From Bacteroidota bacterium (GTDB lineage Bacteria; Bacteroidota; Bacteroidia; Bacteroidales; JAGNHN01), in the NCBI GenBank assembly GCA_022710185.1, contig JAKLHK010000001.1, forward strand, positions 632-64,631: a stretch of 64,000 nucleotides of DNA. The letters are read 5' to 3'. The notes beneath the pieces are model-generated. The model did no database searches and had not been told where the DNA came from. It was given only the letters and a program-made list of their open reading frames with translations. How positions within the stretch are numbered: the first letter of the stretch is position 1; each line of letters begins with the position of its first letter. Made by a program: the position numbers and the translations under genes. This document shows positions 32,597-63,596 of the stretch, piece by piece.

Positions 32597-32628
32597 GATG
32601 ATGGTGCTAATGCTGGTGCAAAGAACGC

Positions 32629-32655
32629 AAAAACGGGCCGGAGGTTTACCGGCCC
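32629..32655 (-). terminator. Rho-independent terminator after the AOS operon
   Basis: On the minus strand: GGGCCGG-7 nt-CCGGCCC followed by GTTTTT. Confidence 0.6.
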
Positions 32656-32728
32656 GGGGTTATGTTATGGTTAAGGAATAGGAGTTTATGCAGGCTGCCG
32701 GCATTGCCACCGGTGGAATGCCCCGGTC

Positions 32729-33976
32729 TTACAATCCGTATTGATCGATGATCTCTTGCTTGGTTTTTCCCAGGATATCATATTTCTTGCCGACTTTTCG
32801 GAAGGCTTCCAGGGCTTTATCCAGGTGATGGGTCTCATGTCCTGCAGAGATCTGGGTCCGGATCCTTGCCGCCCCTTTCGCTACCACCGGGAAGAAAAAT
32901 CCAATGGCATAAATGCCCTCACCGAACAGATCGATGGAGAATTTCTGTGCAAGGCTGGCATTGAAAAGCATCACCGGGACGATCGGGGTATCGCCCGGTT
33001 GCAGTATCAGGCCAGCCTCCTCCAGTCCCTTGCGCCAATATGCTGCGTTCTTCTCGAGCTTATCCCTGCGCTCGGTGCTGCGCGAAAGGATGTCGAACAC
33101 CTTGAGGACGCCGGAAACGACAACAGGCGCCATGGTGTTGGAGAAAAGATAAGGCCTGGCTTTCTGACGGCACATTTCCACGATCTCCCTGCGGCCCGAA
33201 ACACAACCGCCGGAAGCCCCGCCCAGGGCCTTGCCAAAGGTGGTGGTAATGATATCGATCTTTCCGAAAACCCCGCACTTTTCGTGTGTACCTCTGCCTG
33301 TCTTCCCGATGAACCCGCTGGAATGCGATTCATCGACGAAGAGCAGGGCGTCATACTTCTCGCAAAGGGTCACCATTTCATCGAGCCTGGCGGTATCTCC
33401 GTCCATGGAGAACACCCCGTCCGTGATCACGACCTTGATCCGCTTATCTGAATGGAGCTCGAGTTTGCTTTCGAGGTGCTCCATATTGGAATGCTTGAAC
33501 GTATCGTGAATGGCCGGGCAGAGCCGCATCCCGTCCACTATGGAAGCGTGCACCAGCCGATCGGATATCATTACATCCTCAGCGGTCATGAAGGCCTCAA
33601 ATACCCCGGTGTTGGCATCCATGCAGGAGGGGAACAAAACGGTATCCTCGGTCCCGAGGAATTCCGTCACTTTCTGCTCGAGCTCGCGGTGGATGTCCTG
33701 AGTGCCACAGATAAACCTGACGGAGGACATCCCGTACCCGCGGTGGTCGAGGCCCCGGTGTGCTGCTTCGATTACCTCCGGATGGCTGGACAGCCCCAGA
33801 TAGTTGTTGGAGCACATATTGATGACTCTCTTCAGGGAAGAGCCCGCCGGAAATTCAACCTCGATATCCGCCGATTGCACCGAATGGATGAACCTTTCCT
33901 TCTTGAAGATACCTGCTTGCTCAATGGCACTGAGCTCCCGCTGCAGTATTCCCTTAATGTGACCGCTGTATCCCAT
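32729..33976 (-). CDS. PLP-dependent alpha-oxoamine synthase, Kbl (glycine C-acetyltransferase) paralog
   Basis: 415 aa. It aligns along its whole length with the Kbl at 36553..37746 (NNYLGLSSHPEV, SVRFICGTQDIH, DGVFSMDGD, TFGKALGG). It also has a ~17-aa C-terminal extension (YDILGKTKQEIIDQYGL). Confidence 0.85.
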   Translation of the reverse strand: MGYSGHIKGILQRELSAIEQAGIFKKERFIHSVQSADIEVEFPAGSSLKRVINMCSNNYLGLSSHPEVIEAAHRGLDHRGYGMSSVRFICGTQDIHRELEQKVTEFLGTEDTVLFPSCMDANTGVFEAFMTAEDVMISDRLVHASIVDGMRLCPAIHDTFKHSNMEHLESKLELHSDKRIKVVITDGVFSMDGDTARLDEMVTLCEKYDALLFVDESHSSGFIGKTGRGTHEKCGVFGKIDIITTTFGKALGGASGGCVSGRREIVEMCRQKARPYLFSNTMAPVVVSGVLKVFDILSRSTERRDKLEKNAAYWRKGLEEAGLILQPGDTPIVPVMLFNASLAQKFSIDLFGEGIYAIGFFFPVVAKGAARIRTQISAGHETHHLDKALEAFRKVGKKYDILGKTKQEIIDQYGL

Positions 33977-33987
33977 GGCTGTATGTC

Positions 33988-34236
33988 TTATTTGTTCATG
34001 AATTCGGTAACGAGCGCCGCGATCTTGTTCACCGTGTCGAAGGCCTCAGGGGTTGCCCTGTCGTCGGGAAGGCTGATGCTGTATTTGTTCTCCAGGAATC
34101 GCTTCAATGATACCATGGAGAAGGAATCCACGATGCCGGCGGAAATGAGCGGGCTGTCGAAAGTCAGTTCTTCATCCGGATCATCGAGGTACTCATCGAC
34201 GACATAATTGAGGATGGTGGTTTTCAGGTCTTCCAT
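33988..34236 (-). CDS. Stand-alone acyl/peptidyl carrier protein
   Basis: 82 aa, acidic, four-helix-bundle-sized. The phosphopantetheine serine sits in GIVDSFSMVSL. It lies 11 nt upstream of the AOS gene. Confidence 0.75.
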   Translation of the reverse strand: MEDLKTTILNYVVDEYLDDPDEELTFDSPLISAGIVDSFSMVSLKRFLENKYSISLPDDRATPEAFDTVNKIAALVTEFMNK

Positions 34237-34296
34237 AATGTTGCATTTTTATTGTGTGGAGAAACTCCCGGCGGAGATGCCGGCATGGGTTGGTTA

Positions 34297-36003
34297 TTAT
34301 TCGTCATCTTCCAGGGTGGAGGTATCCCCGATCTCTTCTCCCCATTCCCTGGCATGGAGTATCCTGCGCATGATCTTGCCACTCCTCGTCTTGGGAAGGG
34401 AACCTACAAATTCAATCTCCTGCGGCATAGCCAGGGGGGAGAGTTTCTTGCGGATGAAGTTCATTATTTCAAGTTCGGTATCCTGATTGGCCAAGTATCC
34501 ATCCTTCAGCAGTACATAGGCCTTGACCACTTCCATATTGACCTCATCAGGTTTGGCCACCACAGCGGATTCGGCCACTGCCTCGTATTCCAGAAGGGCC
34601 GATTCCACCTCGAAGGGGCTGATCAGGTGACCCCCGGTATTGATCACATCATCATCGCGGCCAACGAACCAGAAATAGCCTTCCGCATCGAGCTTGGCGC
34701 GGTCGCCCGGCAGGTACCATCCGTTCCTGAACTTCTCCTGATAAACCTTTTCGTTTTTCCAGTATCCACGCATCATTGCGGGCCAGCCAGGCCTGAAGCC
34801 GATCAGTCCAACGATTCCCGGTTCGGTAATGGGCTCGAAGGTTTTGGCGTTGAGCACAGCGCCTTGTATCCCCGGGAAGCATTTCCCCATCGATCCAGGT
34901 TTTATCGGCATACCCGGGAGGTTGGTGATCATGATCGACCCGGTCTCTGTTTGCCAGTATGTGTCGAGGAAAGGCTTACCCAGCACACGCTCCGACCATA
35001 TCACGGCCTCAGCGTTCAGTGGCTCGCCCACGCTGGCCAGGTGGCGCAGGCTCGACAGGTCTGCACGCTTCACCACCTCTTCCCCGGCCTTCATGAGGGA
35101 GCGTATGGCGGTGGGGGCAGAATACCACATTGAAATGCTGTGCTTATCAATGAAGCGGTACCAGGCTTCGGCCGAAAACCCTGCATCCAGCACGCACTGG
35201 GTAATGCCCAGGCTCCAGGGGCCGATGATCCCATATGAGGTTCCGGTAACCCAGCCCGGGTCGGCCGTGCACCAGTATATATCGTTTTCCTGAAGGTCGA
35301 GCACCCATTTGGTGGTCAGGTACTGTGAGATCAGGGAGTAATGGACATGCTGCACCCCCTTGGGTTGGCCGGTAGTGCCGGAGGTATAATGGAGTACAGA
35401 AGGGGATTCAGCCCGGGTCGGGAAAATGTCGAAGGCATCTACTGTCTCAGCCTCGGCCAGGTTGAACACCGATTCCCGGTCTTCAAGCGCCTTTTTTCCA
35501 TCGTGGTCGACAATGATGATATGCTCGAGCTGGGGCAGCCTGTCGAGGATTTTTCTCACCTTGCCCACATGCTTGCGCTGGGTTAAAATGGCCCGGGTTC
35601 CGGCATTATCGAGCCTCACAAAGAGCGACTCATCGCCAAAAGCCGAGAACAGCGGCTGGGCTACCGCTCCTATCTTGAGAATGCCAAGGAAACCGATGTA
35701 GAGTTCCGGTATACGGTCCATGAACAGACATACCCTGTCTTCGTCGCGAATCCCCAGCTTTCGCAGGTGAGCGCCGATGGTGTTGCTGGCCAGGCGCAGC
35801 TCGTTGAATGTATACCTTTTCTCGTGCCCGCAAACGTTTTCCCAGAGGAGAGCCAGTTTGTCGCCCTTTCCCTGACGGCAGATCCTGTCGGAACAATGCC
35901 AGCCAATATTCAGGATTCCCTCAGGCCGGTAGTCGAGTTCCTCGTGGACCTCAGACCAATCGGAATGGGCCAGCCTTTCTTTGTAATCGCCAATGTTGGA
36001 CAT
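34297..36003 (-). CDS. Adenylate-forming acyl-CoA/acyl-carrier-protein ligase, acetyl/propionyl-CoA-synthetase-like
   Basis: Track ORF 34297..36144 overlaps acpS, so I start at MSNIGDYKERL (ATG 36003). Motifs are YTSGTTGQPKGV, WCTADPGWVTGTSY and GDRAKLDAEGYFWFVGRDDDVI. Confidence 0.8.
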   Translation of the reverse strand: MSNIGDYKERLAHSDWSEVHEELDYRPEGILNIGWHCSDRICRQGKGDKLALLWENVCGHEKRYTFNELRLASNTIGAHLRKLGIRDEDRVCLFMDRIPELYIGFLGILKIGAVAQPLFSAFGDESLFVRLDNAGTRAILTQRKHVGKVRKILDRLPQLEHIIIVDHDGKKALEDRESVFNLAEAETVDAFDIFPTRAESPSVLHYTSGTTGQPKGVQHVHYSLISQYLTTKWVLDLQENDIYWCTADPGWVTGTSYGIIGPWSLGITQCVLDAGFSAEAWYRFIDKHSISMWYSAPTAIRSLMKAGEEVVKRADLSSLRHLASVGEPLNAEAVIWSERVLGKPFLDTYWQTETGSIMITNLPGMPIKPGSMGKCFPGIQGAVLNAKTFEPITEPGIVGLIGFRPGWPAMMRGYWKNEKVYQEKFRNGWYLPGDRAKLDAEGYFWFVGRDDDVINTGGHLISPFEVESALLEYEAVAESAVVAKPDEVNMEVVKAYVLLKDGYLANQDTELEIMNFIRKKLSPLAMPQEIEFVGSLPKTRSGKIMRRILHAREWGEEIGDTSTLEDDE

Positions 36004-36037
36004 ATTTACGCTCGGATTGGTTAGGTTCGGGTGGTTC

Positions 36038-36412
36038 TCAACACTCCAGCACAACGGTAGCCATGGCGAAATGCCGAATATGGGACAGCGATACATGGAT
36101 CGCCCTGATATTATGTGTATGGGCATACTCCCCGCATTTACCATGCAGCCGGATCATCGGTTTCCCCAGCTCATCCCTGAGGATCTCCACTTCTCTGTAA
36201 GCCATTCCATGGCGCCATCCCGTGCCAAAGGCCTTAAAACACGCTTCCTTGGCTGCAAGGCGCGCCGCAAAATGCTGTTCACTATGCTTCATCGACCGGC
36301 AATACGCCAGCTCGGATGGGGTAAACAGCTGCTCACATAAGCCTTCAACCTTCTCGAGTTGCTCCTTAACCCTGGAAGTCTCGATCAGGTCTGTACCAAT
36401 GCCGTATATCAA
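36038..36412 (-). CDS. acpS: Holo-[acyl-carrier-protein] synthase (4'-phosphopantetheinyl transferase)
   Basis: 124 aa with the MIYGIGTDLIETSRV N-terminus and SLSH near the C-terminus, the typical AcpS layout. Confidence 0.85.
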   Translation of the reverse strand: MIYGIGTDLIETSRVKEQLEKVEGLCEQLFTPSELAYCRSMKHSEQHFAARLAAKEACFKAFGTGWRHGMAYREVEILRDELGKPMIRLHGKCGEYAHTHNIRAIHVSLSHIRHFAMATVVLEC

Positions 36413-36552
36413 GAAGTCCAGGTGTTTATGGGACTTCCAAGGTAGGAAATTAGAAAAGGCGCAACGAAGGTGCCCTGGCAGGACGCCTAATTCAGATTGA
36501 TTTTACATAAGCAATGCTCAATAACACTTGTCAGTGAGCAAGGATATTGCTG

Positions 36553-37746
36553 TTAACCCGCAATAACCCCAAGTTCCTTGCCTACTTTCGAGAAGGCCTC
36601 AAGGGCTTTATCCAGGTGTTCCCGGCTATGCGCGGCGGAAAGCTGTACCCTGATCCTGGCCTGTCCTTTGGCAACCACCGGATAGTAGAAGCCAATGACA
36701 TATACACCCTCTTCCAGCAAACGTGCGGCGAACACCTGGGACAGTTTGGCATCGTACAGCATAATGGCCAGGATCGCAGATTCGGATTCCTTGACATCGA
36801 ACCCTGCTGCCCGTATGCCTTTTTTGAAATACTCTGCGTTGTCCAGTACCCGGTCGTGCAATTCGGTGGTCTCACTGAGCATATCAAATACCCGGATCGC
36901 TGCGCCCACGATGGAAGGGGCGAGTGAATTGGAAAAAAGGTAAGGGCGTGAACGTTGGCGGAGGAGGTCGATTATCTCCTGACGGCCGGTGATGAAGCCC
37001 CCCATAGCACCCCCCAGGGCCTTGCCCAGGGTACCGGTGATAATGTCGACCCGGCCCATGACATTATGATGTTCGGCAGTACCCCGTCCTGTTTTGCCGA
37101 TCACGCCGGACGCGTGGCATTCATCGATCATCACCAGGGCGTCGTACTTCTCGGCCAGGTCGCAGATCTGGTCCAGCTTGGCAATATCCCCATCCATAGA
37201 GAACACCCCATCGGTGGCAATGATGCGGAACCTGCGGTCGGTGGCCATTTTCAGGTGGTCTTCCAGGTCCTCCATATTGTTGTGCTTGTAGCGGTAGCGG
37301 TGGGCCTTGCTCAGACGGACGCCATCAATGATGGACGCATGGTTAAGTTCATCGGAGAAGATGGCATCGTCTGCCCCGAACAGGGGTTCAAACACCCCTC
37401 CATTGGCATCGAACGCTGCCGCATACAATATGGTGTCCTCTGTTGCGAAAAAGGCGGCAATCTTCTTTTCCAGGGTCTTGTGAATATCCTGGGTACCACA
37501 GATGAAACGTACAGAGGACAGGCCGTACCCGTGGGTGTCCAGTGCCTTTTTGGCTGCAATGATGAGCTCAGGGTTCGATGACAGGCCCAGGTAATTGTTC
37601 GCACAGAAATTGAGCACCTCCCGGCCATCTTCAAGCCGGATCTCTGCCCCCTGAGGACCGGTAATAATGCGTTCCTTTTTATAAAGACCTGCATCCCTGA
37701 TCGACTGCAACTCCTGTTGCAGGTACTCCTTCATTTTCCCATACAT
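36553..37746 (-). CDS. kbl: Glycine C-acetyltransferase (2-amino-3-ketobutyrate CoA ligase)
   Basis: 397 aa, colinear with E. coli Kbl as I recall it (LYKKERIITGPQGAEI, NNYLGL, GTLGKALGG, GFYYPVVAKGQARIRVQLSAAH). It is divergent from tdh. The start could be Met5 (37734). Confidence 0.88.
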   Translation of the reverse strand: MYGKMKEYLQQELQSIRDAGLYKKERIITGPQGAEIRLEDGREVLNFCANNYLGLSSNPELIIAAKKALDTHGYGLSSVRFICGTQDIHKTLEKKIAAFFATEDTILYAAAFDANGGVFEPLFGADDAIFSDELNHASIIDGVRLSKAHRYRYKHNNMEDLEDHLKMATDRRFRIIATDGVFSMDGDIAKLDQICDLAEKYDALVMIDECHASGVIGKTGRGTAEHHNVMGRVDIITGTLGKALGGAMGGFITGRQEIIDLLRQRSRPYLFSNSLAPSIVGAAIRVFDMLSETTELHDRVLDNAEYFKKGIRAAGFDVKESESAILAIMLYDAKLSQVFAARLLEEGVYVIGFYYPVVAKGQARIRVQLSAAHSREHLDKALEAFSKVGKELGVIAG

Positions 37747-37939: not shown

Positions 37940-38890
37940 ATGAAAAAGATCATGGTGATCGGGGCGCTCGGACAGATCGGTTCAGAGCTCACGGTATTGC
38001 TGAGGCAGAAGTATGGGGTGGAGAATGTCATTGCCACCGACTGGAAGACCAAGACCGACAACAAGGTACTGGCGGAAGGACCGCTGGAGTATACCGACGT
38101 GATGGACAAGCCCTCGCTTCGCATCGTGATCGAGAAGCACCAGATTGATGCCATCATTCATATGGCGGCCATCCTGAGCGCCACCGGGGAGGAGCACCCC
38201 AACCTGGCCTGGAATGTGAACATGGGCGGGCTTTACAATGTACTGGAGCTGGCCCGGGCGTACAATATGGAGCGGGTGCTGGTGCCCTCCTCTATCGCCG
38301 TATTCGGTCCGGAAACCCCGCGGGAGGATACTCCCCAGGAGACCATACTGCGGCCCACCACCATGTACGGAGTTACCAAAGTGGCCGGGGAGCTGCTGGG
38401 AGATTACTATGTGCGGAGGTTCGGCCTGGATGTACGTGGACTGCGCTATCCCGGCATTATATCTTCCGAGACCCTGCCCGGGGGCGGCACCACCGACTAT
38501 GCCGTGGCCATTTATTATGATGCCATCCGTTACAAGAAATACACCTGCTTCGTTAAGGAGGACACCCGGCTGCCGATGATGTATATGCCGGATTGCCTGA
38601 AGGCGACGATGGACCTTTTGCACGCGCCATTTGATAACCTGGTGCACCACAACGACTTCAACGTAGGTGCAATGAGTTTCACCGCCGGAGAACTGGCTGA
38701 ATCAATACGAAAGTATATCCCTGATTTCCAGATTGAATACAAGCCTGATCACCGGCAGAAGATCGCCGACTCATGGCCCATGAGCGTGGATGACAGCGCA
38801 GCCCGCGCCGAGTGGGGCTGGACCCCAAGCTACGACCTGGACGCCATGACCCGCGATATGCTGGAGAAACTGGAGCAGAAGCTCGGGTAA
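37940..38890 (+). CDS. tdh: L-threonine 3-dehydrogenase, SDR/epimerase-type
   Basis: 316 aa with MKKIMVIGALGQIGSEL (Rossmann), an extended-SDR layout, and pairing with kbl. Confidence 0.8.
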   Translation: MKKIMVIGALGQIGSELTVLLRQKYGVENVIATDWKTKTDNKVLAEGPLEYTDVMDKPSLRIVIEKHQIDAIIHMAAILSATGEEHPNLAWNVNMGGLYNVLELARAYNMERVLVPSSIAVFGPETPREDTPQETILRPTTMYGVTKVAGELLGDYYVRRFGLDVRGLRYPGIISSETLPGGGTTDYAVAIYYDAIRYKKYTCFVKEDTRLPMMYMPDCLKATMDLLHAPFDNLVHHNDFNVGAMSFTAGELAESIRKYIPDFQIEYKPDHRQKIADSWPMSVDDSAARAEWGWTPSYDLDAMTRDMLEKLEQKLG

Positions 38891-39011: not shown

Positions 39012-42000
39012 CTAAATCTTTCCGTCAGAAATATCGAAGAACCGCTCAAAGAAGCGCGTCAACCTTTCCAACACGCTCTCACGTTTCTGAGATCGCTCAC
39101 CTCCTGGGGAGAAGCGGGAAACAGGCGGTAAAACTTTAGCCAATGCTGTTCCAGTGGTTGCCAGGCTACCGTTACGAAAAGCATTGCGCACAAATTTATA
39201 CGTTTCGTCGTGATCAAGATTTTCCCTTTCGATGATCTCTTCCAGCTCCTCTATCCTCTTCTTCTCAACATACTTCTGCCAGTCTTCTTCCACCACCGAG
39301 TGAATATCAAGGGATGCAATGAACTGGTCGATAAGGTCCTTCTTATTGCGCAACTCTACGCTTGAGTCGATGGCCTTGTTAATGTCCACAAGCAATTCAC
39401 GGTTCTTGATGTGGTCTTCGTGGTATTTCTTAACAAGTCCTAAGATGTAGTCAATATTGATCTCTATCTGTTTGATGAGCTCCATTTCGAAGACGAGATC
39501 ATCGTTGATGTATTCCTTCTCGCTATCCAGAGGTTTCCGGAATTCATTATAGAGATCAATGTAGGCACTGTGGTAGTCCTGAATGTCACGCTCTGTTAAA
39601 ATCTCATTCCCAGTGAATTCATCGAAAGTTCCGAGGATATTTCTCACTCTTAGGATCGCGCTGTAGAGGCGGATGAAGTCCTTTTTATCCTGTTCCCCGA
39701 GAATGCGTTCGCCTACCGGAAATTTTCCCAGAAGCTCCTCCACCAGGCTGCGGTATCCACGGACTACCTTTTCCCCGTCTTTATATCCGTTGTAGTACTC
39801 CTCATACGTCTTTAAAAGCACGATTCCGCTGGCTTCCTTATCACCAAAAAGGGCAATAGATTCATTCGTCGCTTTCTCCAGATTACGGAAGCAAACTATA
39901 TTGCCAAAGGTCTTTACCGTATTCAGTATGCGGTTTGTGCGAGAGAATGCCTGCAACAGGCCGTGCAGACGCAGGTTTTTATCTACCCATAATGTATTGA
40001 GTGTTTTAGCATCAAAGCCAGTAAGAAACATATTGACCACCAGTAAAATATCAATTTCCCGGTTTTTAACCCGTTCACTTACATCCTTATAGTAATTCTG
40101 AAATTTGTCGGAAGAAGTATCGTAGGATGTGCCGAACATTGCGTTATAATCCTGGATGGCCTTCTCCAGGAAATCCCTTGAGCTTTGATCCAAACCGCTG
40201 GTGTCCTCTGAATTCTCATCCAGCATCCCGTCTGGTTCTTCCTCGTTTACACCAAAACTGTAGATAATCGCAATTTTGAGCTTTTTATCACTGGGCGCGC
40301 CATCAAGCTGTCTTTGGAATTCAACGTAATACCTTATGGCAGCATCTATGGACGAAACGGCGAAGATGGAGTTAAAGCCGGATAGGCGGATTTTCTCCAT
40401 AATCCTTTCAACCTTCGACCTGTCCTTCGAGGTAACGATCTCATTGATATTTCTGGTGACACTATGGGCGAAGAACTTGCTGTTGCGCTTGGTTTTCTGA
40501 TTAAAATGTTCAATTATGTACTGCACAATATTCGATAGACGCTCCGGAGCAGCAAGCACTGCCTCACGGTCGATGTCGCTTACTTTCTTGTCCTCAATGT
40601 CTTCGGCTTCGCGCACGGTAGAGATGTAATCCACCTTGAAAGGCAGGACATTTTTATCGGCTATGGCGTCAACAATAGTATAGGTGTGTAATTTATCACC
40701 AAAGGCCTGGGCGGTGGTCTTGAAACCTGGCCGCCCGCCGGAAGAGGAATTTACAGCAAAGATCGGCGTACCGGTGAAACCAAATAGATGATAGTTCTTG
40801 AACGCCCTGGTAATGGCGGCGTGCATTTCGCCAAACTGCGAGCGGTGGCATTCATCAAAAATCAGCACGATATGGCCATCAAAAATATTATGCCTTGCGT
40901 TACGGCCAATGAACCGATCGAGTTTTTGAATGGTGGTGATGATGATGCGTGCATTGGCATCTTCAAGCTGGCGCTTTAATATCGCTGTACTGGTATTGCT
41001 GTTGGCCGCACCTTTCTCGAATTTGTCGTATTCGAGCATTGTCTGATAATCGAGGTCTTTGCGGTCAACAATAAAAAGTACTTTGTCGACATAGGGCAAT
41101 TTACTTGCCAATTGGGCGGTTTTGAAACTGGTCAGGGTTTTGCCTGAGCCGGTAGTGTGCCAGATGTAACCACCGGCCTCCACTGTTCCGAGCTTTTTAT
41201 AGTTAGTGCTTGTCTCGATCCTGCTCAGTATCTTCTCGGTGGCCACGATCTGATAGGGCCGCATCGCCAGAAGCTGTTTGTCGGTGGTAAACACGCAGTA
41301 GCGCGTGAGGATATTTAGCAGCGCGTGTTTTGCAAAAAAGGTTTTTGTAAAATCAACAAGATCGGTAATGGGTCGGTTGGTTGCGTCGGCCCACCAACTG
41401 GTAAACTCAAAGCTGTTGCTGCTTCGTTTGCCTTTATTGATGGCGCCCGGCAATGATTCCCTGATGTGTTCCGCGCGCGTGGTATTGCTGTAGTATTTGG
41501 TGTGTGTGCCGTTGGAGATGACGAATATCTGCACGTACTCAAAAAGCCCGGAGCCTGCCCAGAAACTCTCGCGTTGATATCGGTTGATCTGATTAAATGC
41601 TTCCTGTATGGCTACGCCTCGCCGTTTAAGCTCGATATGCACCAGCGGAAGGCCGTTCACCAGCACCGTTACATCGTAGCGGTTGGTTCTTTGGCCGTTT
41701 GCGGTGGCAAATTGGTTGATCACCTGAACACGGTTTTCGTGGATCTTGTCTTTGCGAAGCAGATGGATATTTTTGACAGTGCCATCGTCGCGCTTCAGAT
41801 TTTTGATGTAGTCTTCCTGAATGGTAAGTGTTTTGTCGGCAATGTTCTGATTGGGATTGGCAATCTCGCCGGTAAAAAACCTGTCCCATTCGGTATCCGA
41901 AAACGTGATATCATTAAGCTTTTCAAGCTTTTGACGTAGATTGAGCACCAGATCGGCCTCAGATGAAATGGGCAGATACTCATAGGCCTGTGATTGCAAC

Positions 42001-42134
42001 TGCTCAATAAAGGTGTGTTCCAGTTCGGCTTCGCTCTGGTACGACTTCGCGGCGCGATAAGCGGGTGTGTATTCGGCCAGCACAGTGCTTTGCGGATTTT
42101 CCGCAACCAAGTTGTATCGGGTACTAACTGGCAT
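39012..42134 (-). CDS. hsdR: Type I restriction endonuclease subunit R
   Basis: 1040 aa with SF2 helicase motifs (HTTGSGKTLTS, LIFDECHRSQFG, FTGTPIF) and type I HsdR N- and C-terminal regions. It overlaps hsdS by 11 nt. Confidence 0.92.
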   Translation of the reverse strand: MPVSTRYNLVAENPQSTVLAEYTPAYRAAKSYQSEAELEHTFIEQLQSQAYEYLPISSEADLVLNLRQKLEKLNDITFSDTEWDRFFTGEIANPNQNIADKTLTIQEDYIKNLKRDDGTVKNIHLLRKDKIHENRVQVINQFATANGQRTNRYDVTVLVNGLPLVHIELKRRGVAIQEAFNQINRYQRESFWAGSGLFEYVQIFVISNGTHTKYYSNTTRAEHIRESLPGAINKGKRSSNSFEFTSWWADATNRPITDLVDFTKTFFAKHALLNILTRYCVFTTDKQLLAMRPYQIVATEKILSRIETSTNYKKLGTVEAGGYIWHTTGSGKTLTSFKTAQLASKLPYVDKVLFIVDRKDLDYQTMLEYDKFEKGAANSNTSTAILKRQLEDANARIIITTIQKLDRFIGRNARHNIFDGHIVLIFDECHRSQFGEMHAAITRAFKNYHLFGFTGTPIFAVNSSSGGRPGFKTTAQAFGDKLHTYTIVDAIADKNVLPFKVDYISTVREAEDIEDKKVSDIDREAVLAAPERLSNIVQYIIEHFNQKTKRNSKFFAHSVTRNINEIVTSKDRSKVERIMEKIRLSGFNSIFAVSSIDAAIRYYVEFQRQLDGAPSDKKLKIAIIYSFGVNEEEPDGMLDENSEDTSGLDQSSRDFLEKAIQDYNAMFGTSYDTSSDKFQNYYKDVSERVKNREIDILLVVNMFLTGFDAKTLNTLWVDKNLRLHGLLQAFSRTNRILNTVKTFGNIVCFRNLEKATNESIALFGDKEASGIVLLKTYEEYYNGYKDGEKVVRGYRSLVEELLGKFPVGERILGEQDKKDFIRLYSAILRVRNILGTFDEFTGNEILTERDIQDYHSAYIDLYNEFRKPLDSEKEYINDDLVFEMELIKQIEINIDYILGLVKKYHEDHIKNRELLVDINKAIDSSVELRNKKDLIDQFIASLDIHSVVEEDWQKYVEKKRIEELEEIIERENLDHDETYKFVRNAFRNGSLATTGTALAKVLPPVSRFSPGGERSQKRESVLERLTRFFERFFDISDGKI

Positions 42135-43368
42135 TCTCTAATGGCTTAAATGTTAGCAGTTTGTTCCGGTAGTATTCGTATTGTTTGCGCCGGGCATTGA
42201 GTTCCGCCGGTAGGCCGGCAGAAATGTCGTTCACCAATGCGTCGAATTTATCGAGAATAGCCACAATGCGTTCTTGTTCGGCAAGGGGCGGGATGGGAAT
42301 TTTAATTTTTGTCAGATTATCATTATAAAGCCTTTGGATTGTACCGCCTTCAGTTTTCCATTCAATGATTGCGTACAAGTAATACAAGAATCTATTTAAC
42401 ACCTTTCTCTCGTCATTATCGATCCAAATAATATTTGAATCTTGAAAATATGCAGGCTCACCATTGTATATTACGCGGCGTCCAATTGTTCCAGACGCTG
42501 ATAACAGCACATCGCCCTTCTTTGGAAAAGAGAATTTTCTGCGATATTTATTAAAAACCTCTTGTGATATAAAAGCATTTGGCTGTTTGCCAAAGGTTCC
42601 AATTTTATAGAATGGGATATCACCACTCGTTAATGTTTCATTCTTAAAAATTCGTTTACACATAGATACTCTTCCTATCTCTCCCAACGCCCTCCACTCC
42701 ACATCATTCCCAAAGCTCAGCAGCTCCTCCCGATAGTGCTCATATTGCTTTTTTCGCGATTCCAGCTCCGCTTCCAGCTCCGCTTCCAGCTCCGCTTCCA
42801 GCGTGGTGAAGGTGTCCAGGATTCTTACGATCTCGTGCTGGATAGGGAGGGGGGGGATGGGGATGAGAATTTTCGAAAAGCGCTTTTTTGAGATATTAAA
42901 TCGTGTTACACCGCTGGCGGTATTCGCAATTTGATTCCTTATCTGTTCAGCTCTAAACAGATACTTTGAAAATCCTGGAAGAAGTACATTGGTGACATTA
43001 AAACGAAAACCAAAACAGAAGCTATTCAAATACAATGGTTCATCTGTCGTTGTTGTTAAAACAGAAGACATTCCACACTCATCTGGTGTTTCAGATGAGC
43101 CTGTAAACAGTACATCACCATATTCAATTCTGTTTTGCTTTTCGTCTTTGCCTATTCTTACAAAAACATCAATGTCAGTATCGAGGGAGATATTAGAATA
43201 GATATTCAGATAGGTTACAAGTTTTGCGTTACCATTATTAAAGTCGTTCTTGTTTTTTCCGGTTAGTCCCCCATAAAAATTGCCTAATAATCCCAGTTCC
43301 TTAAATACCACTCCCTCCGGGCAGAGCTCAGCAATCAGCTTTTCTATTTTATTCAAAGGCTTATTCAT
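42124..43368 (-). CDS. hsdS: Type I R-M specificity subunit S
   Basis: 414 aa with two target-recognition domains. These are separated by the central helix (TTLEAELEAELEAELESRKKQYEHYREELLSF) and closed by a C-terminal helix (LNARRKQYEYYRNKLLTF). Confidence 0.9.
   Translation of the reverse strand: MNKPLNKIEKLIAELCPEGVVFKELGLLGNFYGGLTGKNKNDFNNGNAKLVTYLNIYSNISLDTDIDVFVRIGKDEKQNRIEYGDVLFTGSSETPDECGMSSVLTTTTDEPLYLNSFCFGFRFNVTNVLLPGFSKYLFRAEQIRNQIANTASGVTRFNISKKRFSKILIPIPPLPIQHEIVRILDTFTTLEAELEAELEAELESRKKQYEHYREELLSFGNDVEWRALGEIGRVSMCKRIFKNETLTSGDIPFYKIGTFGKQPNAFISQEVFNKYRRKFSFPKKGDVLLSASGTIGRRVIYNGEPAYFQDSNIIWIDNDERKVLNRFLYYLYAIIEWKTEGGTIQRLYNDNLTKIKIPIPPLAEQERIVAILDKFDALVNDISAGLPAELNARRKQYEYYRNKLLTFKPLENAS
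42760..42801 (-). repeat. 12-nt tandem repeat x3.5 encoding (LEAE)n in the HsdS central helix
   Basis: TTCCAGCTCCGC occurs three times plus TTCCAG on the plus strand, and reads LEAELEAELEAELE on the coding strand. Confidence 0.9.
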
Positions 43369-44401
43369 TATCTTTCTCCTTGGCTGATTCTGAAATTCTG
43401 CTGCCTTTCTTCAGCTTCTTTTCGGCCTTTCCCAGTGTTTCCAGGTAGGAACGTTCCACCGCGCTGAGGGTTGCCGACTGGTATTTCCTGTATTCTGTCT
43501 CGGCCTTGTGTATTGCCTGATCGTGGCTTACACCGCCTGCGTTCTCCAGCAATTTCCCGTCGAAGCTCAGGATGAGCCTGTCCAATTGTGCGATCCAGTC
43601 CTTCATATACATTGCTTCCTGGTTCAGCGCTTTAAGCTCTGCAAGGTCAAAGTAGGCTGAAACGATGTTGTTGAGCTTTTTGAGCTCGTTTTCGGTGAGA
43701 TAGTTTTTGGCGATGCTGATATCTTTCCGGGTGACTTCTCCGCCGGAAAAGGTAAGCAGTCCCATAAACGGCTGCCCGGCATCGGCGCGCTTTGCGATCA
43801 CCTCGGCGGCAGTATGTCCGTGAGCGGCATAATGCAGCTTGTTCTGCACTATCCTGAAAAACTGTATGGACTCTTTGGTGTTAGGATCGTAATCAAGGCT
43901 GGTGGCGTAAAGATCCAGCACCTGGCGGTAGAGGACCTTCTCGCTGCTACGGATATCGCGTATGCGGTCGAGCAGCTCCTTCCAGTAATTTCCGCCTCCT
44001 GTGCCCTTGAGCCGCTCATCATCCATAGTGAAGCCCTTGACCAGGTACTCCTTAAGACGTGCAGTGGCCCAGATTCGAAATTTCGTAGCTATATGAGATT
44101 TTATGCGGTAACCGACAGAAATAATAGCATCCAGGTTATAGAACTTATGTTTTCGCTCAACCTTTCTTGTACCCTCATACTGAACTTGTAAAAATTCCTT
44201 ACACGTTGCTTCCTCCTGAAGTTCAGCTTCATCAAAAATATTCTTCAGGTGTATGGTAATGTTCTGAGGTGTAGTGTGAAACAGTTCGGCCATCATCTTT
44301 TGCGTGAGCCAAACATTCTCATTCTCCAGGCGGACCTCAATTTTTGTTGTGTCGTCATTATCCTGATAAAGAATGAGTTCCCCTTTGTTCTCTTCTCTCA
44401 T
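43361..44401 (-). CDS. rhuM: RhuM-family protein embedded in the hsd operon
   Basis: 346 aa. N-terminus LILYQDNDDTTKIEVRLENENVWLTQKMMAELFHTTPQNITIHLKNIF and FYNLDAIISVGYRIKS are typical of the RhuM family. It has an ATGA overlap with hsdM and an 8-nt overlap with hsdS. Confidence 0.8.
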   Translation of the reverse strand: MREENKGELILYQDNDDTTKIEVRLENENVWLTQKMMAELFHTTPQNITIHLKNIFDEAELQEEATCKEFLQVQYEGTRKVERKHKFYNLDAIISVGYRIKSHIATKFRIWATARLKEYLVKGFTMDDERLKGTGGGNYWKELLDRIRDIRSSEKVLYRQVLDLYATSLDYDPNTKESIQFFRIVQNKLHYAAHGHTAAEVIAKRADAGQPFMGLLTFSGGEVTRKDISIAKNYLTENELKKLNNIVSAYFDLAELKALNQEAMYMKDWIAQLDRLILSFDGKLLENAGGVSHDQAIHKAETEYRKYQSATLSAVERSYLETLGKAEKKLKKGSRISESAKEKDNE

Positions 44402-45978
44402 TGCTTGCCCCTTTCCAGATCTGCAACTATTTCGTCAATTGCTTCGCGCAGTTCGTTTTGCCGGGCCACAATACCGGCGATCTCAGCATTGAGCTTCATA
44501 ATGTCGATCACTTCGCGGGTGTCTTCCTGGGCTACATAGCTTGATACGGCTATATTGTAGTCGTTTTCTCCTATTTCTTTATTATCCACCAGCCTGGCAA
44601 AATGCGCGATGTCGGCGCGTGCCATAAACGCCTTCAGTATTCGCGTGCGGTTCTCCTCGCTCAATTTGTTTTTGTTTCCTCCGCGTACAAATTCTGCCGA
44701 GGCATCGATAAAGAAGGTTTTATTGTCCTTCTTGCTCTTTTTCAGCACAATAATGCAGGTTGCGATGGTAGTACCGAAGAAGAGGTCGGGTGGAAGCTGG
44801 ATTACGGCATCGATGTAGTTGTTGTCCACCAGATACTTGCGGATCTTCTGTTCAGCGCCGCCGCGGTAGAGCACGCCGGGAAACTCAACGATAGCCGCTG
44901 TGCCGCTGGTAGAAAGCCAGGAGAGCATATGCATCGTAAAGGCCAGGTCGGCCTTGCTCTTGGGTGCCAAAACGCCCGCCGGCGAGAAGCGTGGATCATT
45001 GATCAACAGCGGATTACTGTCGCCTTCCCACTTGATGGAATAGGGCGGATTGGAGACAATGGCATCAAAGGGCTCGTCATCCCAGTGCCTGGGATCCATC
45101 AGGGTATCGCCGAGAGCAATATCAAAGTGATTAAAGTTGATGTCGTGCAGGAACATATTGATCCGGCAGAGGTTATAGATTGTAAGGTTACTTTCCTGTC
45201 CAAAGAATCCTTGCCGCACGTTTTCCTTACCAAGAACCTTGACGAACTTCAGCAGCAGGGAACCTGAGCCGCAGGCCGGGTCATACACCTTGTTTACTTC
45301 CTTTTTCCCGACTGTGGTAATTTCGGCAAGCAGTTCGCTGACTTCCTGCGGCGTAAAAAATTCCCCGCCCGACTTGCCCGCATTGGCAGCATACATTGTC
45401 ATCAGAAACTCATAGGCATCGCCGAAGGCGTCAATCGTATTGTCGTAATAATTACCGAGTCGAAGATCGCCTATGGCTTCCAGAAGCTTAACCAGTTTTT
45501 GGTTTCGCTTTTCCACCGTATTGCCAAGTTTACTGGCATTCACGTCGAGATCATCAAACAGACCTTTGAGGTCATCTTCGCTATCTGCTCCCTTGGCTGA
45601 GCTTTCTATGTTGCGGAATATGGTAGCGAGGGTTTCGTTGAGGTTAGCATCGTTGCGGGCCCTGACCCTCACATTCACAAAAAGCTCGCTGGGCAGGATA
45701 TAGAACCCCTTTTCCCTTACCGTGTCAAGGCGTCCGAATTCCGCCTGAGTATCCGAAAGTTTGGCGTAATCAAAATCCTTCCTGCCGCTGCGCCTCTCGT
45801 CTTCATTGATGTAGCTTGTAAGATTCTCGCTGATGAAGCGGTAAAAAAGCATCCCCAGAACATATTGCTTGAAATCCCAGCCGTCCACGCTGCCGCGCAG
45901 GTCGTTGGCGATCTGCCAGATGGCGCGGTGCAGTTCGGCGCGTTCTTGTTCTTTGGTGATATTATTATTGTTTGCCAT
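44398..45978 (-). CDS. hsdM: Type I R-M DNA methyltransferase subunit M
   Basis: Track ORF 44398..46044, started at MANNNNITKEQERAELHRAIWQIANDLRG (ATG 45978). It has the SAM motif DPACGSG and the catalytic motif SNPPYS. Confidence 0.92.
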   Translation of the reverse strand: MANNNNITKEQERAELHRAIWQIANDLRGSVDGWDFKQYVLGMLFYRFISENLTSYINEDERRSGRKDFDYAKLSDTQAEFGRLDTVREKGFYILPSELFVNVRVRARNDANLNETLATIFRNIESSAKGADSEDDLKGLFDDLDVNASKLGNTVEKRNQKLVKLLEAIGDLRLGNYYDNTIDAFGDAYEFLMTMYAANAGKSGGEFFTPQEVSELLAEITTVGKKEVNKVYDPACGSGSLLLKFVKVLGKENVRQGFFGQESNLTIYNLCRINMFLHDINFNHFDIALGDTLMDPRHWDDEPFDAIVSNPPYSIKWEGDSNPLLINDPRFSPAGVLAPKSKADLAFTMHMLSWLSTSGTAAIVEFPGVLYRGGAEQKIRKYLVDNNYIDAVIQLPPDLFFGTTIATCIIVLKKSKKDNKTFFIDASAEFVRGGNKNKLSEENRTRILKAFMARADIAHFARLVDNKEIGENDYNIAVSSYVAQEDTREVIDIMKLNAEIAGIVARQNELREAIDEIVADLERGKQ

Positions 45979-46025
45979 AGAAATTTTCAGATGTGTCATT
46001 GATATATTGCCTCCGACGGTAATCT

Positions 46026-46033
46026 CAAAAATA
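46026..46033 (-). promoter_or_regulatory. -7 box TATTTTTG (minus strand) for hsdM
   Basis: CAAAAATA on the plus strand, 48 nt upstream of the ATG at 45978. It lies inside the longer track ORF, which supports the shorter start. Confidence 0.45.
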
Positions 46034-46148
46034 GAGAATTCCACTTAAACCAGGTATGACGTGTGAATTCATCCAATCTGCCGGCTTACTTATTATGTTT
46101 TTTACTCTAATAAACGGAATCTTTGTACTAAACGATTGGACAGGTTGC

Positions 46149-47231
46149 CTATTCGTGAAAATACTCCCAGTTACTAAAAGTCAATTCTCTGCCTGATGTG
46201 GGTATACAGGTATAATACTTAATATTTTGTGAGTGGTGTCGGTCAAATATTTTAAAAACTCTTTTCTTAACGTCTTCTGGAGTCCTGATTCCAAAATAGA
46301 TGCCAGTCAAACATTCAATTGGATAGTAGCTAATTCTCTCTTCAGGTTCTTTCTTATCCTTAAAGTTGATTATTATTGCTCGCCACTCCTTTTCGTAAGC
46401 CCAGGGCAATGTCTTTGTCGAAAATACAGATTCTAATTCCCTCGCAAAATTGTGAGTCCAGCTTTTAGTTAAGCCAATTAGATCACAATCGTACTCGTTA
46501 TCAATTACAGGTGCAAATTCAAAAAAATTGATATGCGGTTGATTATCTTGATATTTTACTTTGTGGATTTTTTTCCAAAAAATGGTTTCGCTAATATTCC
46601 AATTAGAGATTGTTTGCAGATATTCTTGGTTATTTGCAATTCTTAGACCTGTCTTTTTGAATGGGAAAAGTTCGTGTTTATCAAGTGTAAATTCTAAACA
46701 AATTCCTGAATGTTTACTGGCATAGTGCGACCACATTAAAAAATCATTTTTGCATTCTGAAAAGCAATTCATATAGCTATTTTCAAAAAACATTTGCGAT
46801 AATCGATTCAGTTCAATTTTTAAATCGATTATTGAAAAGCGACAGGGAATGCAATCAGATGTAGATTGTAGAATACTTTCTAATTCATCTATTGAGATAA
46901 AGCTATGTTTTTTAGCTAGTTGAGTTAATCTGTCGAAAAGTAATGACTTATAATTATTTCGTAATTTTTCATTCTTGTTGAATTCTATAAGGTTTTTATT
47001 ATTCAACTGCTCTAAACCTGTCAATGGATTCTCGTCAATTACTATAGTCGTTTTGAAAAGCAACCCGAGCAAGTTCTCTATTTGCTGTATGTCTGCTGGT
47101 GTAAAATCAATTCTTGCACTTAGGTCCAATGGGTCATTAAGTTCTGAATAGGAAGCAAAGTAAAGTTCTTGATAATACAACTCTTTGAATAATAATTCAT
47201 TTAATGGTCTGTATTTGTATAGTTTTATCAT
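46149..47231 (-). CDS. DUF2971 domain protein
   Basis: 360 aa with LYKYRPLNELLFKELYYQELYFASYSELNDPLDL at the N-terminus, MWSHYASKHSGICLEF in the middle and a YEKEWR block. This is the characteristic DUF2971 pattern. It is the most AT-rich gene in the window. Confidence 0.8.
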   Translation of the reverse strand: MIKLYKYRPLNELLFKELYYQELYFASYSELNDPLDLSARIDFTPADIQQIENLLGLLFKTTIVIDENPLTGLEQLNNKNLIEFNKNEKLRNNYKSLLFDRLTQLAKKHSFISIDELESILQSTSDCIPCRFSIIDLKIELNRLSQMFFENSYMNCFSECKNDFLMWSHYASKHSGICLEFTLDKHELFPFKKTGLRIANNQEYLQTISNWNISETIFWKKIHKVKYQDNQPHINFFEFAPVIDNEYDCDLIGLTKSWTHNFARELESVFSTKTLPWAYEKEWRAIIINFKDKKEPEERISYYPIECLTGIYFGIRTPEDVKKRVFKIFDRHHSQNIKYYTCIPTSGRELTFSNWEYFHE

Positions 47232-47259
47232 TGGTGGTTATCTTATTTCAGGGCGACAT

Positions 47260-47267
47260 CAAATTTA
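47260..47267 (-). promoter_or_regulatory. -7 box TAAATTTG (minus strand) for the DUF2971 gene
   Basis: CAAATTTA on the plus strand, 29 nt upstream of the ATG at 47231. Confidence 0.45.
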
Positions 47268-47475
47268 TCATAATAACGCGCAGAAAAAATGACTTTTGTC
47301 CAATCGCTAGGCAAGATACTCCCAGTCGGAGTGTAATGCAATAGGAAAAGTAAGGATGATGTATGAGCGAGAAAAGCGAGGAAGGGAATATCGGATAAAG
47401 CTTGTCCGCCTACTGGCGGAAACACCTATTATCGTTTGAAGCGCAATGAAGCAGGGAATATCATCCCACCCCCGG

Positions 47476-47997
47476 CTAGAGAAAGAACTTGTTCATCAGC
47501 ATATAATCGATGTTCCCATCCTGCGAATGACAACCTATGCAGGAGCTGCCCTTTTTGGAGGCGGGTTCAGCCACGCTACCATCAGCATTGATGTAACCCC
47601 ATACCCAACCCCTGGCATCCGCGTCAGGGTGGTCCGAATCCTTAAAGAGGATGGCATACCTGGCCCGTGAGTTTGAATTCTCGTATAGCTCTTTAACCAC
47701 CAGGGATCCTTCAGGGAACGCCGCACCGGGCATTATCTTCCCGCTGGAATCCAACTGGGTTGCCGCGGCGGTGTTGTACCAGGTCCTAAGGAAAGGTTGA
47801 GGGTGGCCGCTTCCCGAACTCTTATCCAATAAAGCGCTGGAATTCTTATACCAATGGATCCCACTGGATAACAGTACCATATCGTAGAGCTCCTTGTCAG
47901 TCCCGGCAGCCTCCTTGTCCTTCTTACACGACGAAACGGCCCCTAGGCACAGCAATGTTATGGATATGATAATCAATCTGCTAAACGTATTTCTCAT
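47476..47997 (-). CDS. Cytochrome P460-family haem lipoprotein
   Basis: 173 aa with a lipobox (LGAVSSC), a single CxxCH haem motif near the C-terminus (SSCIGCHSQ) and a FPEGSLVVKE pattern. Confidence 0.6.
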   Translation of the reverse strand: MRNTFSRLIIISITLLCLGAVSSCKKDKEAAGTDKELYDMVLLSSGIHWYKNSSALLDKSSGSGHPQPFLRTWYNTAAATQLDSSGKIMPGAAFPEGSLVVKELYENSNSRARYAILFKDSDHPDADARGWVWGYINADGSVAEPASKKGSSCIGCHSQDGNIDYMLMNKFFL

Positions 47998-48130
47998 CTC
48001 TTCGCATTTTTTAATGATCGAAATATGGCACAGGTCTGCTTAATTCGATTGGGTTAAAGCTGCATCGAAAATAAGTTTGCGCCATTTCGAAGCAAACATA
48101 TAGAATATTGAATATCGAACAAGGATCAAG

Positions 48131-63522: not shown

Positions 63523-63596
63523 TCCTCCTTAGCTCAGTTGGTCAGAGCATCTGACTGTTAATCAGAGGGTCGCTGGTTCAAGTCCAGCAGGGGGAG
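63523..63596 (+). tRNA. tRNA-Asn (anticodon GTT)
   Basis: 74-nt cloverleaf by hand. Acceptor TCCTCCT/AGGGGGA (one G-U pair), D arm GCTC-AGTTGGTCA-GAGC, anticodon arm TCTGA-CTGTTAA-TCAGA (GTT at 63557-63559), T arm GCTGG-TTCAAGT-CCAGC. CCA is not encoded. Confidence 0.9.

Follow-up and report, generated by a model that had tools for sequence, protein, structure and literature searches.

A 64,000-nucleotide stretch of a Bacteroidales metagenome-assembled genome (MAG), positions 632 to 64,631 of contig JAKLHK010000001.1 and hereafter called the window, contains a four-gene operon that encodes a holo-ACP synthase (AcpS), an AMP-forming ligase, a small carrier protein, and an alpha-oxoamine synthase (AOS) of the glycine C-acetyltransferase (Kbl) subfamily. 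The MAG derives from JGI metagenome 3300010429, and the parent contig is 310 kb in length. All of the evidence presented here is comparative. What appears to be new is that the ligase, carrier, and AOS genes form a trio that is fixed across phyla, linked to genes for L-threonine 3-dehydrogenase (Tdh) and canonical Kbl, and hyperconserved. We consider it likely that these proteins carry out the chemistry connecting threonine, glycine, and acetate on a dedicated carrier instead of coenzyme A (CoA), a scheme that is shared by the readings in either direction.

Literature searches returned no description of this module, nor of a Kbl-like enzyme that works with a carrier protein or acetyl-ACP, in line with a preliminary description of the same DNA that knew of no characterized pathway of such composition. 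Public annotation gives the proteins generic names only (glycine C-acetyltransferase, acetyl-CoA synthetase, and acyl carrier protein).

Distribution and conservation of the gene trio

A species scan with one genome per species yielded at least 486 confirmed relatives of the AOS, and the best 80 were analyzed for genomic context. Taxa are named as the depositors of the MAGs labeled them, and linkage counts rest on tblastn because calling of open reading frames (ORFs) in high-GC loci gave opposite-strand artifacts. The 120 best database matches to the AOS are all exactly 415 aa long, 81%–100% identical to it, and annotated as glycine C-acetyltransferase, and they come from MAGs of Bacteroidales, Marinilabiliales, Cloacimonadota, Marinimicrobia, Delongbacteria, and Acidobacteriota. 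To these taxa the best 80 of the 486 or more relatives add Zixibacteria, Aminicenantes, KSB1, CSSED10-310, Chlorobiota, and some Clostridia-labeled MAGs. The ligase-carrier-AOS trio is fixed in these 80 species genomes, which represent at least nine phyla and are all MAGs, so the block is conserved together as had been anticipated. No cultured host was seen among the named matches listed. Where a locus had enough sequence, the carrier gene was always directly upstream of the AOS gene (67 of 67 loci), and the ligase gene was upstream of the carrier in 63 of the 67.

Neighboring genes were scored within 8 kb at the 43 loci with full flanks. At 29 of them AcpS is part of the cluster and lies directly upstream of the ligase; about one-third are without it. 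Tdh is found at 24 loci, 11 times as a short-chain dehydrogenase (SDR) type and 13 times as a Zn-MDR type (541 bits on model NF003808, cut-off 380). Canonical Kbl is found at 18, and either Tdh or canonical Kbl at 30. Common layouts are AcpS-Lig-ACP-AOS, TdhMDR-Lig-ACP-AOS-Kbl, AcpS-TdhSDR-Lig-ACP-AOS, and TdhSDR-AcpS-Lig-ACP-AOS(-YaaH), such that in some loci Tdh separates AcpS from the ligase, and in some the trio is inserted inside tdh-kbl. Because two unrelated Tdh families replace each other beside the trio, there is strong evidence that function, and not ancestry, holds Tdh in this position. The occurrence of this linkage in many phyla argues for a module in the primary metabolism of threonine and glycine, not in specialized metabolism.

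Mean AOS identity is about 84%–89% within phyla and 82%–86% between them; the phylum signal is weak, yet present in small phyla. The GC content at third codon positions (GC3) of AOS genes ranges from 0.18 to 0.91 and tracks that of the flanking and host DNA (r = 0.96). Identity to the AOS gene of the window is about 38% at third codon positions and 87% at positions 1 and 2. Recent horizontal transfer was rejected as the source of the high protein identity, since synonymous sites have reached saturation and GC3 varies with the host, and the same two observations argue for strong purifying selection. Alignment columns that are at least 95% conserved make up 59% of the AOS, 50% of the ligase, 41% of the carrier, and 19% of AcpS, and 37% of canonical Kbl in a narrower taxon sample. 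By these measures the trio is under unusually strong purifying selection and AcpS evolves at an ordinary rate. Conservation of the trio fits a core, probably highly expressed function with tight protein-protein contacts. AcpS had been described as private to the module; its family was correctly named, but private status is unproven, given its ordinary rate and its absence from the cluster in about one-third of loci, and it may be the sole AcpS of its host.

Family assignment of the three proteins

Profile and structure-database scores assign the AOS to the Kbl type and place it outside the SPT and SulA/CapB groups. It passes the Kbl model TIGR01822 (556.2 bits, cut-off 493) and NF005394 (550.9 bits, cut-off 460), and it falls short of the SPT models (301.9 vs a cut-off of 640 for SPT-CFB, 272.9 vs 500 for SPT-Beta, and 218.3 vs 670 for SPT-Alpha) and lies far under the NCBIfam cut-offs for BioF, ALAS, and CqsA. 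A PDB search gave 430–446 bits for the Kbl entries 7bxp, 1fc4, 7v58, and 3tqx, compared with 294 for the Thermus AOS, 218 for SPT, 195 for ALAS, 178 for BioF, and 105 for CqsA; SulA (7u7h, 175.4 bits) and CapB (28eh, 169.5 bits) are likewise far under the 446 bits of Kbl.

Within the Kbl subfamily, this AOS belongs to a distinct clade. Members are 78.6%–87% identical to the AOS of the window and just 51%–57% identical to canonical Kbl, and in the window the AOS and the neighboring Kbl share 54% identity. Canonical Kbls encoded beside the trio are 52%–71% identical to the Kbl of the window. The pyridoxal phosphate (PLP) and catalytic residues are kept (H143, D215/H218 in DESHSSG, the Schiff-base Lys K249 in TFGKALGG, and the ARIRTQ motif), with conservation of 95% or more across 76 clade members. 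Forty-five positions are clade-specific relative to Kbl, and the C-terminal tail (ILGKTKxEIIxxYG) is conserved.

The strand that follows the PLP-stacking His is of particular relevance to the choice of thiol. K147, R150, and R152 of this strand are conserved in 24 canonical Kbls, and the clade has S/P, H, and T in their place, with Asp for Y151. By ungapped mapping, R150 of Kbl aligns with Lys156 of Rhodobacter capsulatus ALAS, which lines the adenosyl pocket and contacts the ribose of succinyl-CoA; mutation of the equivalent residue in murine ALAS2 raised the Km for succinyl-CoA 23-fold (PMC4615937). Loss of this basic strand suggests that CoA is not the substrate, without proving use of the carrier. 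The clade has gained conserved basic residues (R140, K178, R303, and K406); these and the C-terminal tail could provide a surface on which the acidic carrier docks, as described for SulA (PMC9304779). The AOS is predicted to interconvert glycine plus acetyl-S-carrier and 2-amino-3-oxobutanoate (AKB) plus HS-carrier. Its thiol substrate probably differs from CoA, and for this reason we do not treat it simply as another Kbl.

One Delongbacteria MAG (locus L013, 9316-10569) encodes a second AOS of 417 aa in tandem directly after the clade AOS. It is 60% identical to the AOS and 57% identical to the Kbl of the window, scores 596–599 bits on the Kbl model, and bears the clade C-terminal tail (ILGKTKKEIIEMYPL). 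This copy may be an evolutionary intermediate or a sub-functionalized duplicate.

The ligase scores 727.8 bits on the NCBIfam acetate-CoA ligase model PRK04319, 1.2 under the cut-off of 729, and its closest PDB structure is a 572-aa AcsA (9g79, 535 bits). Residues V252, T253, V325, and W350 align with and are identical to V310, T311, V386, and W414 of S. enterica Acs, which we take to be its acetate pocket, and Lys543 corresponds to the catalytic K609. Across 63 homologues, conservation of the pocket residues and of this Lys is 95% or more, and the blocks GWVTG, SVGEP, YWQTETG, and SGKIMRR are conserved as well. We class the enzyme on these residues as a short AcsA-type, AMP-forming, acetate-specific ligase, and predict that it acetylates and deacetylates the adjoining carrier rather than CoA. 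Propionate is an unlikely substrate, as Val325 (equivalent to V386) is kept; PrpE presumably has Ala at this position. Loading of glycine or another amino acid on the carrier is also unlikely because the ligase pocket is of the hydrophobic Acs acetate type and the AOS keeps its carboxylate-binding Arg motif. A comparison of the CoA-binding loop (R191/R194; G196/T197 in Acs1 of Syntrophus aciditrophicus, SaAcs1) was uninformative as a guide to CoA versus carrier or to direction because short AcsA enzymes are without that loop of long Acs.

A whole-library search with the ligase recovered outgroups but no closer characterized relative; in this library, clustered at 50%, the nearest full-length relatives are at most 48% identical. 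Genomic context was checked for the four nearest. Two are in Dlt-like operons with a 77–79-aa carrier and an MBOAT protein, and one of these carriers is 29% identical to that of the window and has the same GxIDSF motif. The third belongs to a polysaccharide cluster that has no carrier, and the 2.3-kb contig of the fourth is uninformative on context. Since two of the four pair with carriers, carrier loading would seem to recur in this branch of AcsA-like enzymes. The two Dlt-like operons (L089:6001-7890 and L091:129-4630) have the AcsA-like ligase in the place of DltA. Their ligases are 45%–47% identical to that of the window, with Phe for the acetate-pocket Trp, and the operons also hold the MBOAT acyltransferase, a 379–393-aa protein, and, in L091, a 38-aa DltX-like ORF. 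These operons may encode a system for short-acyl, not D-alanyl, modification of the cell envelope.

The carrier is acidic (isoelectric point 4.1) and has a phosphopantetheine site at Ser38 within PLISxGxVDSFSMVSL; this Ser (GIVDSFSM) is at least 95% conserved across 55 carriers. Only PF00550 is passed. The best NCBIfam match is ACP_for_OlsHI (60 bits, cut-off 130), and the DltC model NF003464 is not passed (28 bits, cut-off 68). The best PDB matches are 6cxt, PltL, PigG, and DltC, and the carrier is nearer to type-II peptidyl and aminoacyl carriers than to fatty-acid ACPs. Neither the window nor the 80 loci contain a gene for an MBOAT protein or DltD, and the likeness to DltC goes no further than the class of carrier.

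Profile hidden Markov model matches agree with the family given to each of the four operon proteins in the preliminary description (ACPS 60 bits, AMP-binding 254, AMP-binding_C 81, PP-binding 23.9 with a cut-off of 20.8, and Aminotran_1_2 194). Its finer readings also held: the AOS is Kbl-like rather than SPT-like (556 vs the Kbl cut-off of 493, and 302 vs 640 for SPT-CFB), its C-terminal extension is genuine and conserved among homologues, the ligase is Acs-like with a complete acetate pocket and not FadD-like, and the carrier resembles DltC and peptidyl carrier proteins (PCPs).

The operon and its surroundings

The four genes run in one direction, and intergenic gaps in the ORF map are 34, 60, and 11 nt (Table 1). 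This layout, including the gaps, matches the one first described, and every sequence motif quoted at that time is present. AcpS scores 105.8 bits on TIGR00516 (cut-off 59.8) and presumably turns the apo-carrier into its holo form. The longest ORF for the ligase (34297-36144, 615 aa) has a 141-nt upstream extension that overlaps acpS by 107 nt. The true start is at 36003, because gene callers and 63 homologues all begin there (MSxIG). The operon ends at a strong intrinsic terminator that lies 73 nt past the AOS stop codon, with a stem of eight G-C pairs (CGGGCCGG/CCGGCCCG; 32656-32634), a 7-nt loop, and then TTTTTGCGTT. The hairpin and T-run had been recognized before, but their coordinates (32629-32655) were off by one base.

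Table 1. Features of the operon and adjoining genes in the window
Feature	Position	Strand	Details
AcpS (holo-ACP synthase, phosphopantetheinyl transferase)	36038..36412	-	124 aa; PF01648 + TIGR00516
AcsA-type AMP-forming ligase, short	34297..36003	-	568 aa, starts MSNIG; AMP-binding + AMP-binding_C
Carrier, DltC/type-II PCP kind	33988..34236	-	82 aa; PF00550
Kbl-subfamily AOS	32729..33976	-	415 aa; TIGR01822, Aminotran_1_2
Intrinsic terminator ending the operon	32624..32656	-	Stem + loop + T-run
Canonical glycine C-acetyltransferase (Kbl)	36553..37746	-	397 aa; TIGR01822 683 bits vs cut-off 493
L-threonine 3-dehydrogenase, SDR-type	37940..38890	+	316 aa; divergent from Kbl; solved-structure matches

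Canonical Kbl is encoded 140 nt upstream of acpS. A terminator scan of the gap (36413-36552) found no terminator-like site, and with both genes on the same strand, Kbl is possibly co-transcribed with the operon. The Tdh of the window scores 340–423 bits against solved L-threonine dehydrogenases (7cgv, 2yy7, and 3a1n). A sigma-70 promoter scan gave nothing above chance, and such a scan is unsuited to Bacteroidota. No riboswitch or leader RNA was found with Rfam in the window or in nine diverse related loci; the sole Rfam match at gathering threshold in the whole window is a tRNA gene (63523-63596). Just past tdh is the R subunit of a type I restriction enzyme (1040 aa, 39012-42134), flanked on the parent contig by a 414-aa protein without a Pfam match and a RhuM-family gene. 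GC content falls from about 0.55 to 0.39–0.48 across 40–48 kb, and the region 39012-48000 looks like an acquired restriction or defense island beside the operon.

A search across the related loci for additional conserved partner genes found that only lineage-limited ones recur: an NhaC-type transporter (six loci), an SDR (five), a YaaH protein (three), and an MFS transporter (three). A gene for a GPR1/FUN34/YaaH (SatP-type) acetate channel directly follows that of the AOS in three loci, two from Cloacimonadota and one from Aminicenantes (L001:9305-9874, L016, and L085). In six loci of Acidobacteriota/Aminicenantes the NhaC-family gene immediately precedes that of AcpS, the MFS transporter is downstream in three loci, and dipeptidase genes adjoin the module in some loci. 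In an Acidobacteriota MAG (L002:9298-10757 and L003:3249-4708), two genes follow that of the AOS on the same strand; one encodes a 243-aa protein without a Pfam match and the other a short-chain dehydrogenase of the same length. Five Aminicenantes-type loci have a related SDR of 240 aa near the module.

Proposed use of a carrier protein in place of coenzyme A

In the scheme that we propose, AcpS would put phosphopantetheine on Ser38 of the carrier, which would then serve as the thiol for both enzymes, with acetyl as the predicted acyl group. The AOS would interconvert AKB plus HS-carrier with glycine plus acetyl-S-carrier, the ligase would interconvert acetyl-S-carrier, AMP, and pyrophosphate (PPi) with acetate, ATP, and HS-carrier, and Tdh would connect AKB and L-threonine via NAD(H). 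The net reaction would be Thr + NAD+ + AMP + PPi <-> Gly + acetate + NADH + ATP. By a rough estimate drawn from textbook free energies, it lies within about 10 kJ/mol of equilibrium, so that either direction would be feasible. A private carrier would set the ratio of acetyl thioester to thiol apart from the acetyl-CoA/CoA pool, which would be useful in either direction. AKB is the expected intermediate because Kbl-type enzymes do not decarboxylate. The preliminary description had left the amino-ketone product unnamed and had assumed a biosynthetic direction; the Kbl type and the Tdh linkage lead us to expect AKB, and the module may run in either direction.

The position of the carrier gene, always between the ligase and the AOS apart from the four loci in which the ligase was not found upstream, favors the carrier over CoA, as does the altered adenosyl pocket of the AOS clade. 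The ligase could nevertheless be a conventional acetyl-CoA synthetase and the AOS one more Kbl isozyme that depends on CoA, with the carrier in an unrelated or accessory role. The near-threshold score of the ligase on the acetate-CoA ligase model, the passing score of the AOS on the Kbl model, public annotation that uses exactly those names, and retention of a basic residue at the position of R584 in S. enterica Acs all fit this alternative. We judge it very improbable, as it does not account for a carrier that adjoins the AOS in every locus with enough sequence, for the hyperconservation of all three proteins together, or for the loss of the basic strand that CoA-using relatives have; in addition, AcpS is in the operon in most loci, and related ligases pair with carriers. 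An entry module for sphingolipids or sulfonolipids, of the SPT/AcpR/AasR or SulA/CapB kind, would share the three-part logic known from Rhodobacteria and would suit a Bacteroidales host. It is effectively refuted by the family scores, with none of the SPT models passed and SulA and CapB far below Kbl, and its probability is negligible: the acetate pocket of the ligase, which is not FadD-like, is of the closed kind and includes Trp350, and no reductase or ceramide synthase is co-conserved.

Synthesis of a specialized small metabolite, an alpha-amino ketone such as aminoacetone, or pyrazines or signals derived in this way, was the earlier interpretation and is improbable. The layout of ligase, carrier, AOS, and AcpS is typical of natural-product entry modules, and operons of Tdh and Kbl can reportedly give aminoacetone-derived alkylpyrazines when CoA is low (PMC9814548). 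However, the loci share no conserved genes for tailoring, export, or regulation, the trio is conserved in at least nine phyla, despite saturation at synonymous sites, to a degree far above what is usual for specialized metabolism, and the AOS passes the Kbl model with a complete catalytic set and has Tdh and Kbl as its conserved partners.

If carrier-based threonine-glycine-acetate chemistry is accepted, its direction has to be weighed separately. Run toward glycine and acetate with formation of ATP, it would be catabolic, a reading that we favor slightly, though tentatively. Threonine would be oxidized, the carrier thiol would cleave AKB, and the ligase would run in reverse to save the thioester as ATP. 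The trio is embedded in the tdh-kbl operon, which is classically catabolic, and genes for a dipeptidase, an NhaC-type transporter, and YaaH are neighbors in some loci. More guardedly, the module could constitute a self-contained, CoA-independent substrate-level phosphorylation from threonine through AKB and acetyl-carrier to ATP and acetate, in which the private carrier would keep the ratio of acetyl thioester to thiol high for ATP synthesis and leave the acetyl-CoA pool undisturbed. There is precedent for an AMP-forming Acs that runs backwards to ATP in Acs1 of Syntrophus aciditrophicus (PMC4992975, PMC13404658). An environmental clade of Cloacimonadota is without acetate kinase, and 79% of its genomes have acs (K01895), which the authors of the surveys regarded as ATP-forming (PMC12590816; bioRxiv 10.1101/2021.10.08.463351). 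This Cloacimonadota "acs" may be the carrier-linked ligase of the module, and if so, the published reconstructions would have to be reconsidered.

Several points weigh against carrier-based catabolism. In every characterized system of ligase, carrier, and AOS the ligase runs forwards, the outgroup Dlt-like systems would likewise imply forward loading, and a reverse ligase would consume PPi and AMP in stoichiometric amounts. Acetate uptake is the role usually discussed for channels of the YaaH/SatP family. The ligase scores essentially at the Acs threshold, and no feature of its sequence was found that excludes CoA as the acceptor. The clade residue at the position of ALAS Lys156 is His, which could still hydrogen-bond a ribose. 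Thirteen of the 43 full loci are without Tdh or Kbl inside 8 kb, and the best 80 loci are the nearest relatives of the AOS in the window and not a random sample of the family.

The same chemistry may run in the opposite direction, as ATP-driven formation of threonine or co-assimilation of acetate and glycine, which we regard as somewhat unlikely. Acetate would be converted to acetyl-carrier at the cost of ATP to AMP and PPi, glycine would be added to give AKB, and Tdh with NADH would yield threonine, with a near-fully acetylated carrier pool pushing a Claisen condensation that is otherwise unfavorable. Forward operation is the rule in the characterized systems of ligase, carrier, and AOS (PMC9386255) and would agree with the nearest outgroup ligases, which load carriers in Dlt-like operons. 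The forward direction is also the normal one for AMP-forming ligases and requires no stoichiometric supply of PPi, and a YaaH/SatP-type acetate channel is encoded directly downstream in three loci. Reducing anaerobic conditions would, by our own estimate, favor reduction of AKB. However, this route would duplicate the aspartate route to threonine with no evident physiological need, a co-expressed canonical Kbl (adjacent in 18 of 43 loci) would turn AKB into acetyl-CoA and glycine, and dipeptidase neighbors fit catabolism better.

Comparison with known systems indicates which parts of the proposed scheme have counterparts. The Tdh-Kbl pathway (EC 1.1.1.103 / 2.3.1.29) is alike in its Kbl subfamily, catalytic residues, Tdh partner, and intermediate AKB; here, the AOS forms a separate clade, always occurs with a carrier and an acetate-adenylating ligase, and would use protein-bound phosphopantetheine as the thiol. 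Citrate lyase and malonate decarboxylase have acetyl-ACP cycles, in which an AMP-forming acetate:SH-ACP ligase (CitC) acetylates the carrier. They are alike as catabolic lyases on a dedicated acetylated carrier, but their proteins are unrelated, their prosthetic group is 2'-(5''-phosphoribosyl)-3'-dephospho-CoA, and their ligase merely primes the cycle. SxtA, an ACP-AONS didomain of saxitoxin synthesis, uses a short acyl-ACP and arginine and is PKS-like, fused, and decarboxylating. In DltA/DltC pairs, the carrier is of the same DltC/PCP-like kind, with a GxxDSF motif and an AcpS-type transferase; the module differs in that it has no MBOAT/DltD, a cytoplasmic PLP enzyme downstream, and acetate rather than D-alanine as its predicted substrate. 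Acs1 of S. aciditrophicus shares the family, acetate pocket, and catalytic lysine and is the precedent for ATP from an acetyl thioester, whereas the present enzyme is of the short 568-aa AcsA type without the long CoA-binding loop, has a predicted carrier partner, and would be reversed only hypothetically. In Caulobacter, AasR acylates only the private AcpR and not CoA, and SPT prefers acyl-AcpR (PMC9386255). This rhodobacterial system has the same clustering of an AOS, a private ACP, and a dedicated synthetase, with parts that are not orthologous; it uses serine and long-chain acids, decarboxylates, and leads to a lipid, whereas the module has a Kbl-type AOS, an acetate-specific ligase, and threonine-catabolic partners and would use glycine with no decarboxylation. 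SulA is an AOS that prefers acyl-ACP (PMC9304779) and thus also draws its acyl group from a carrier, in its case housekeeping long-chain acyl-ACP for condensation with cysteate. Neither SulA nor SxtA is Kbl-type or linked to Tdh.

If the proposed chemistry is correct, a step of amino-acid metabolism that textbooks describe as CoA-dependent also exists in a form that relies on a carrier protein, and this form is widespread in uncultured anaerobes of sediments and digesters (Bacteroidota, Cloacimonadota, Acidobacteriota/Aminicenantes, Zixibacteria, KSB1, and Delongbacteria). Dedicated carriers are rare in catabolic primary metabolism, where the acetyl-ACP cycles of citrate lyase and malonate decarboxylase set a precedent, and about 80% amino-acid identity between phyla points to a function of high value, probably with a tight multi-protein interaction. 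With four or five soluble proteins, the system is open to direct reconstitution. Substrate-level phosphorylation on the carrier, if true, would explain the presence of "acs" in Cloacimonadota lineages without acetate kinase. Metabolic reconstructions of the host phyla treat the ligase as Acs and the AOS as Kbl, so what they infer about the metabolism of acetate and threonine may be wrong.

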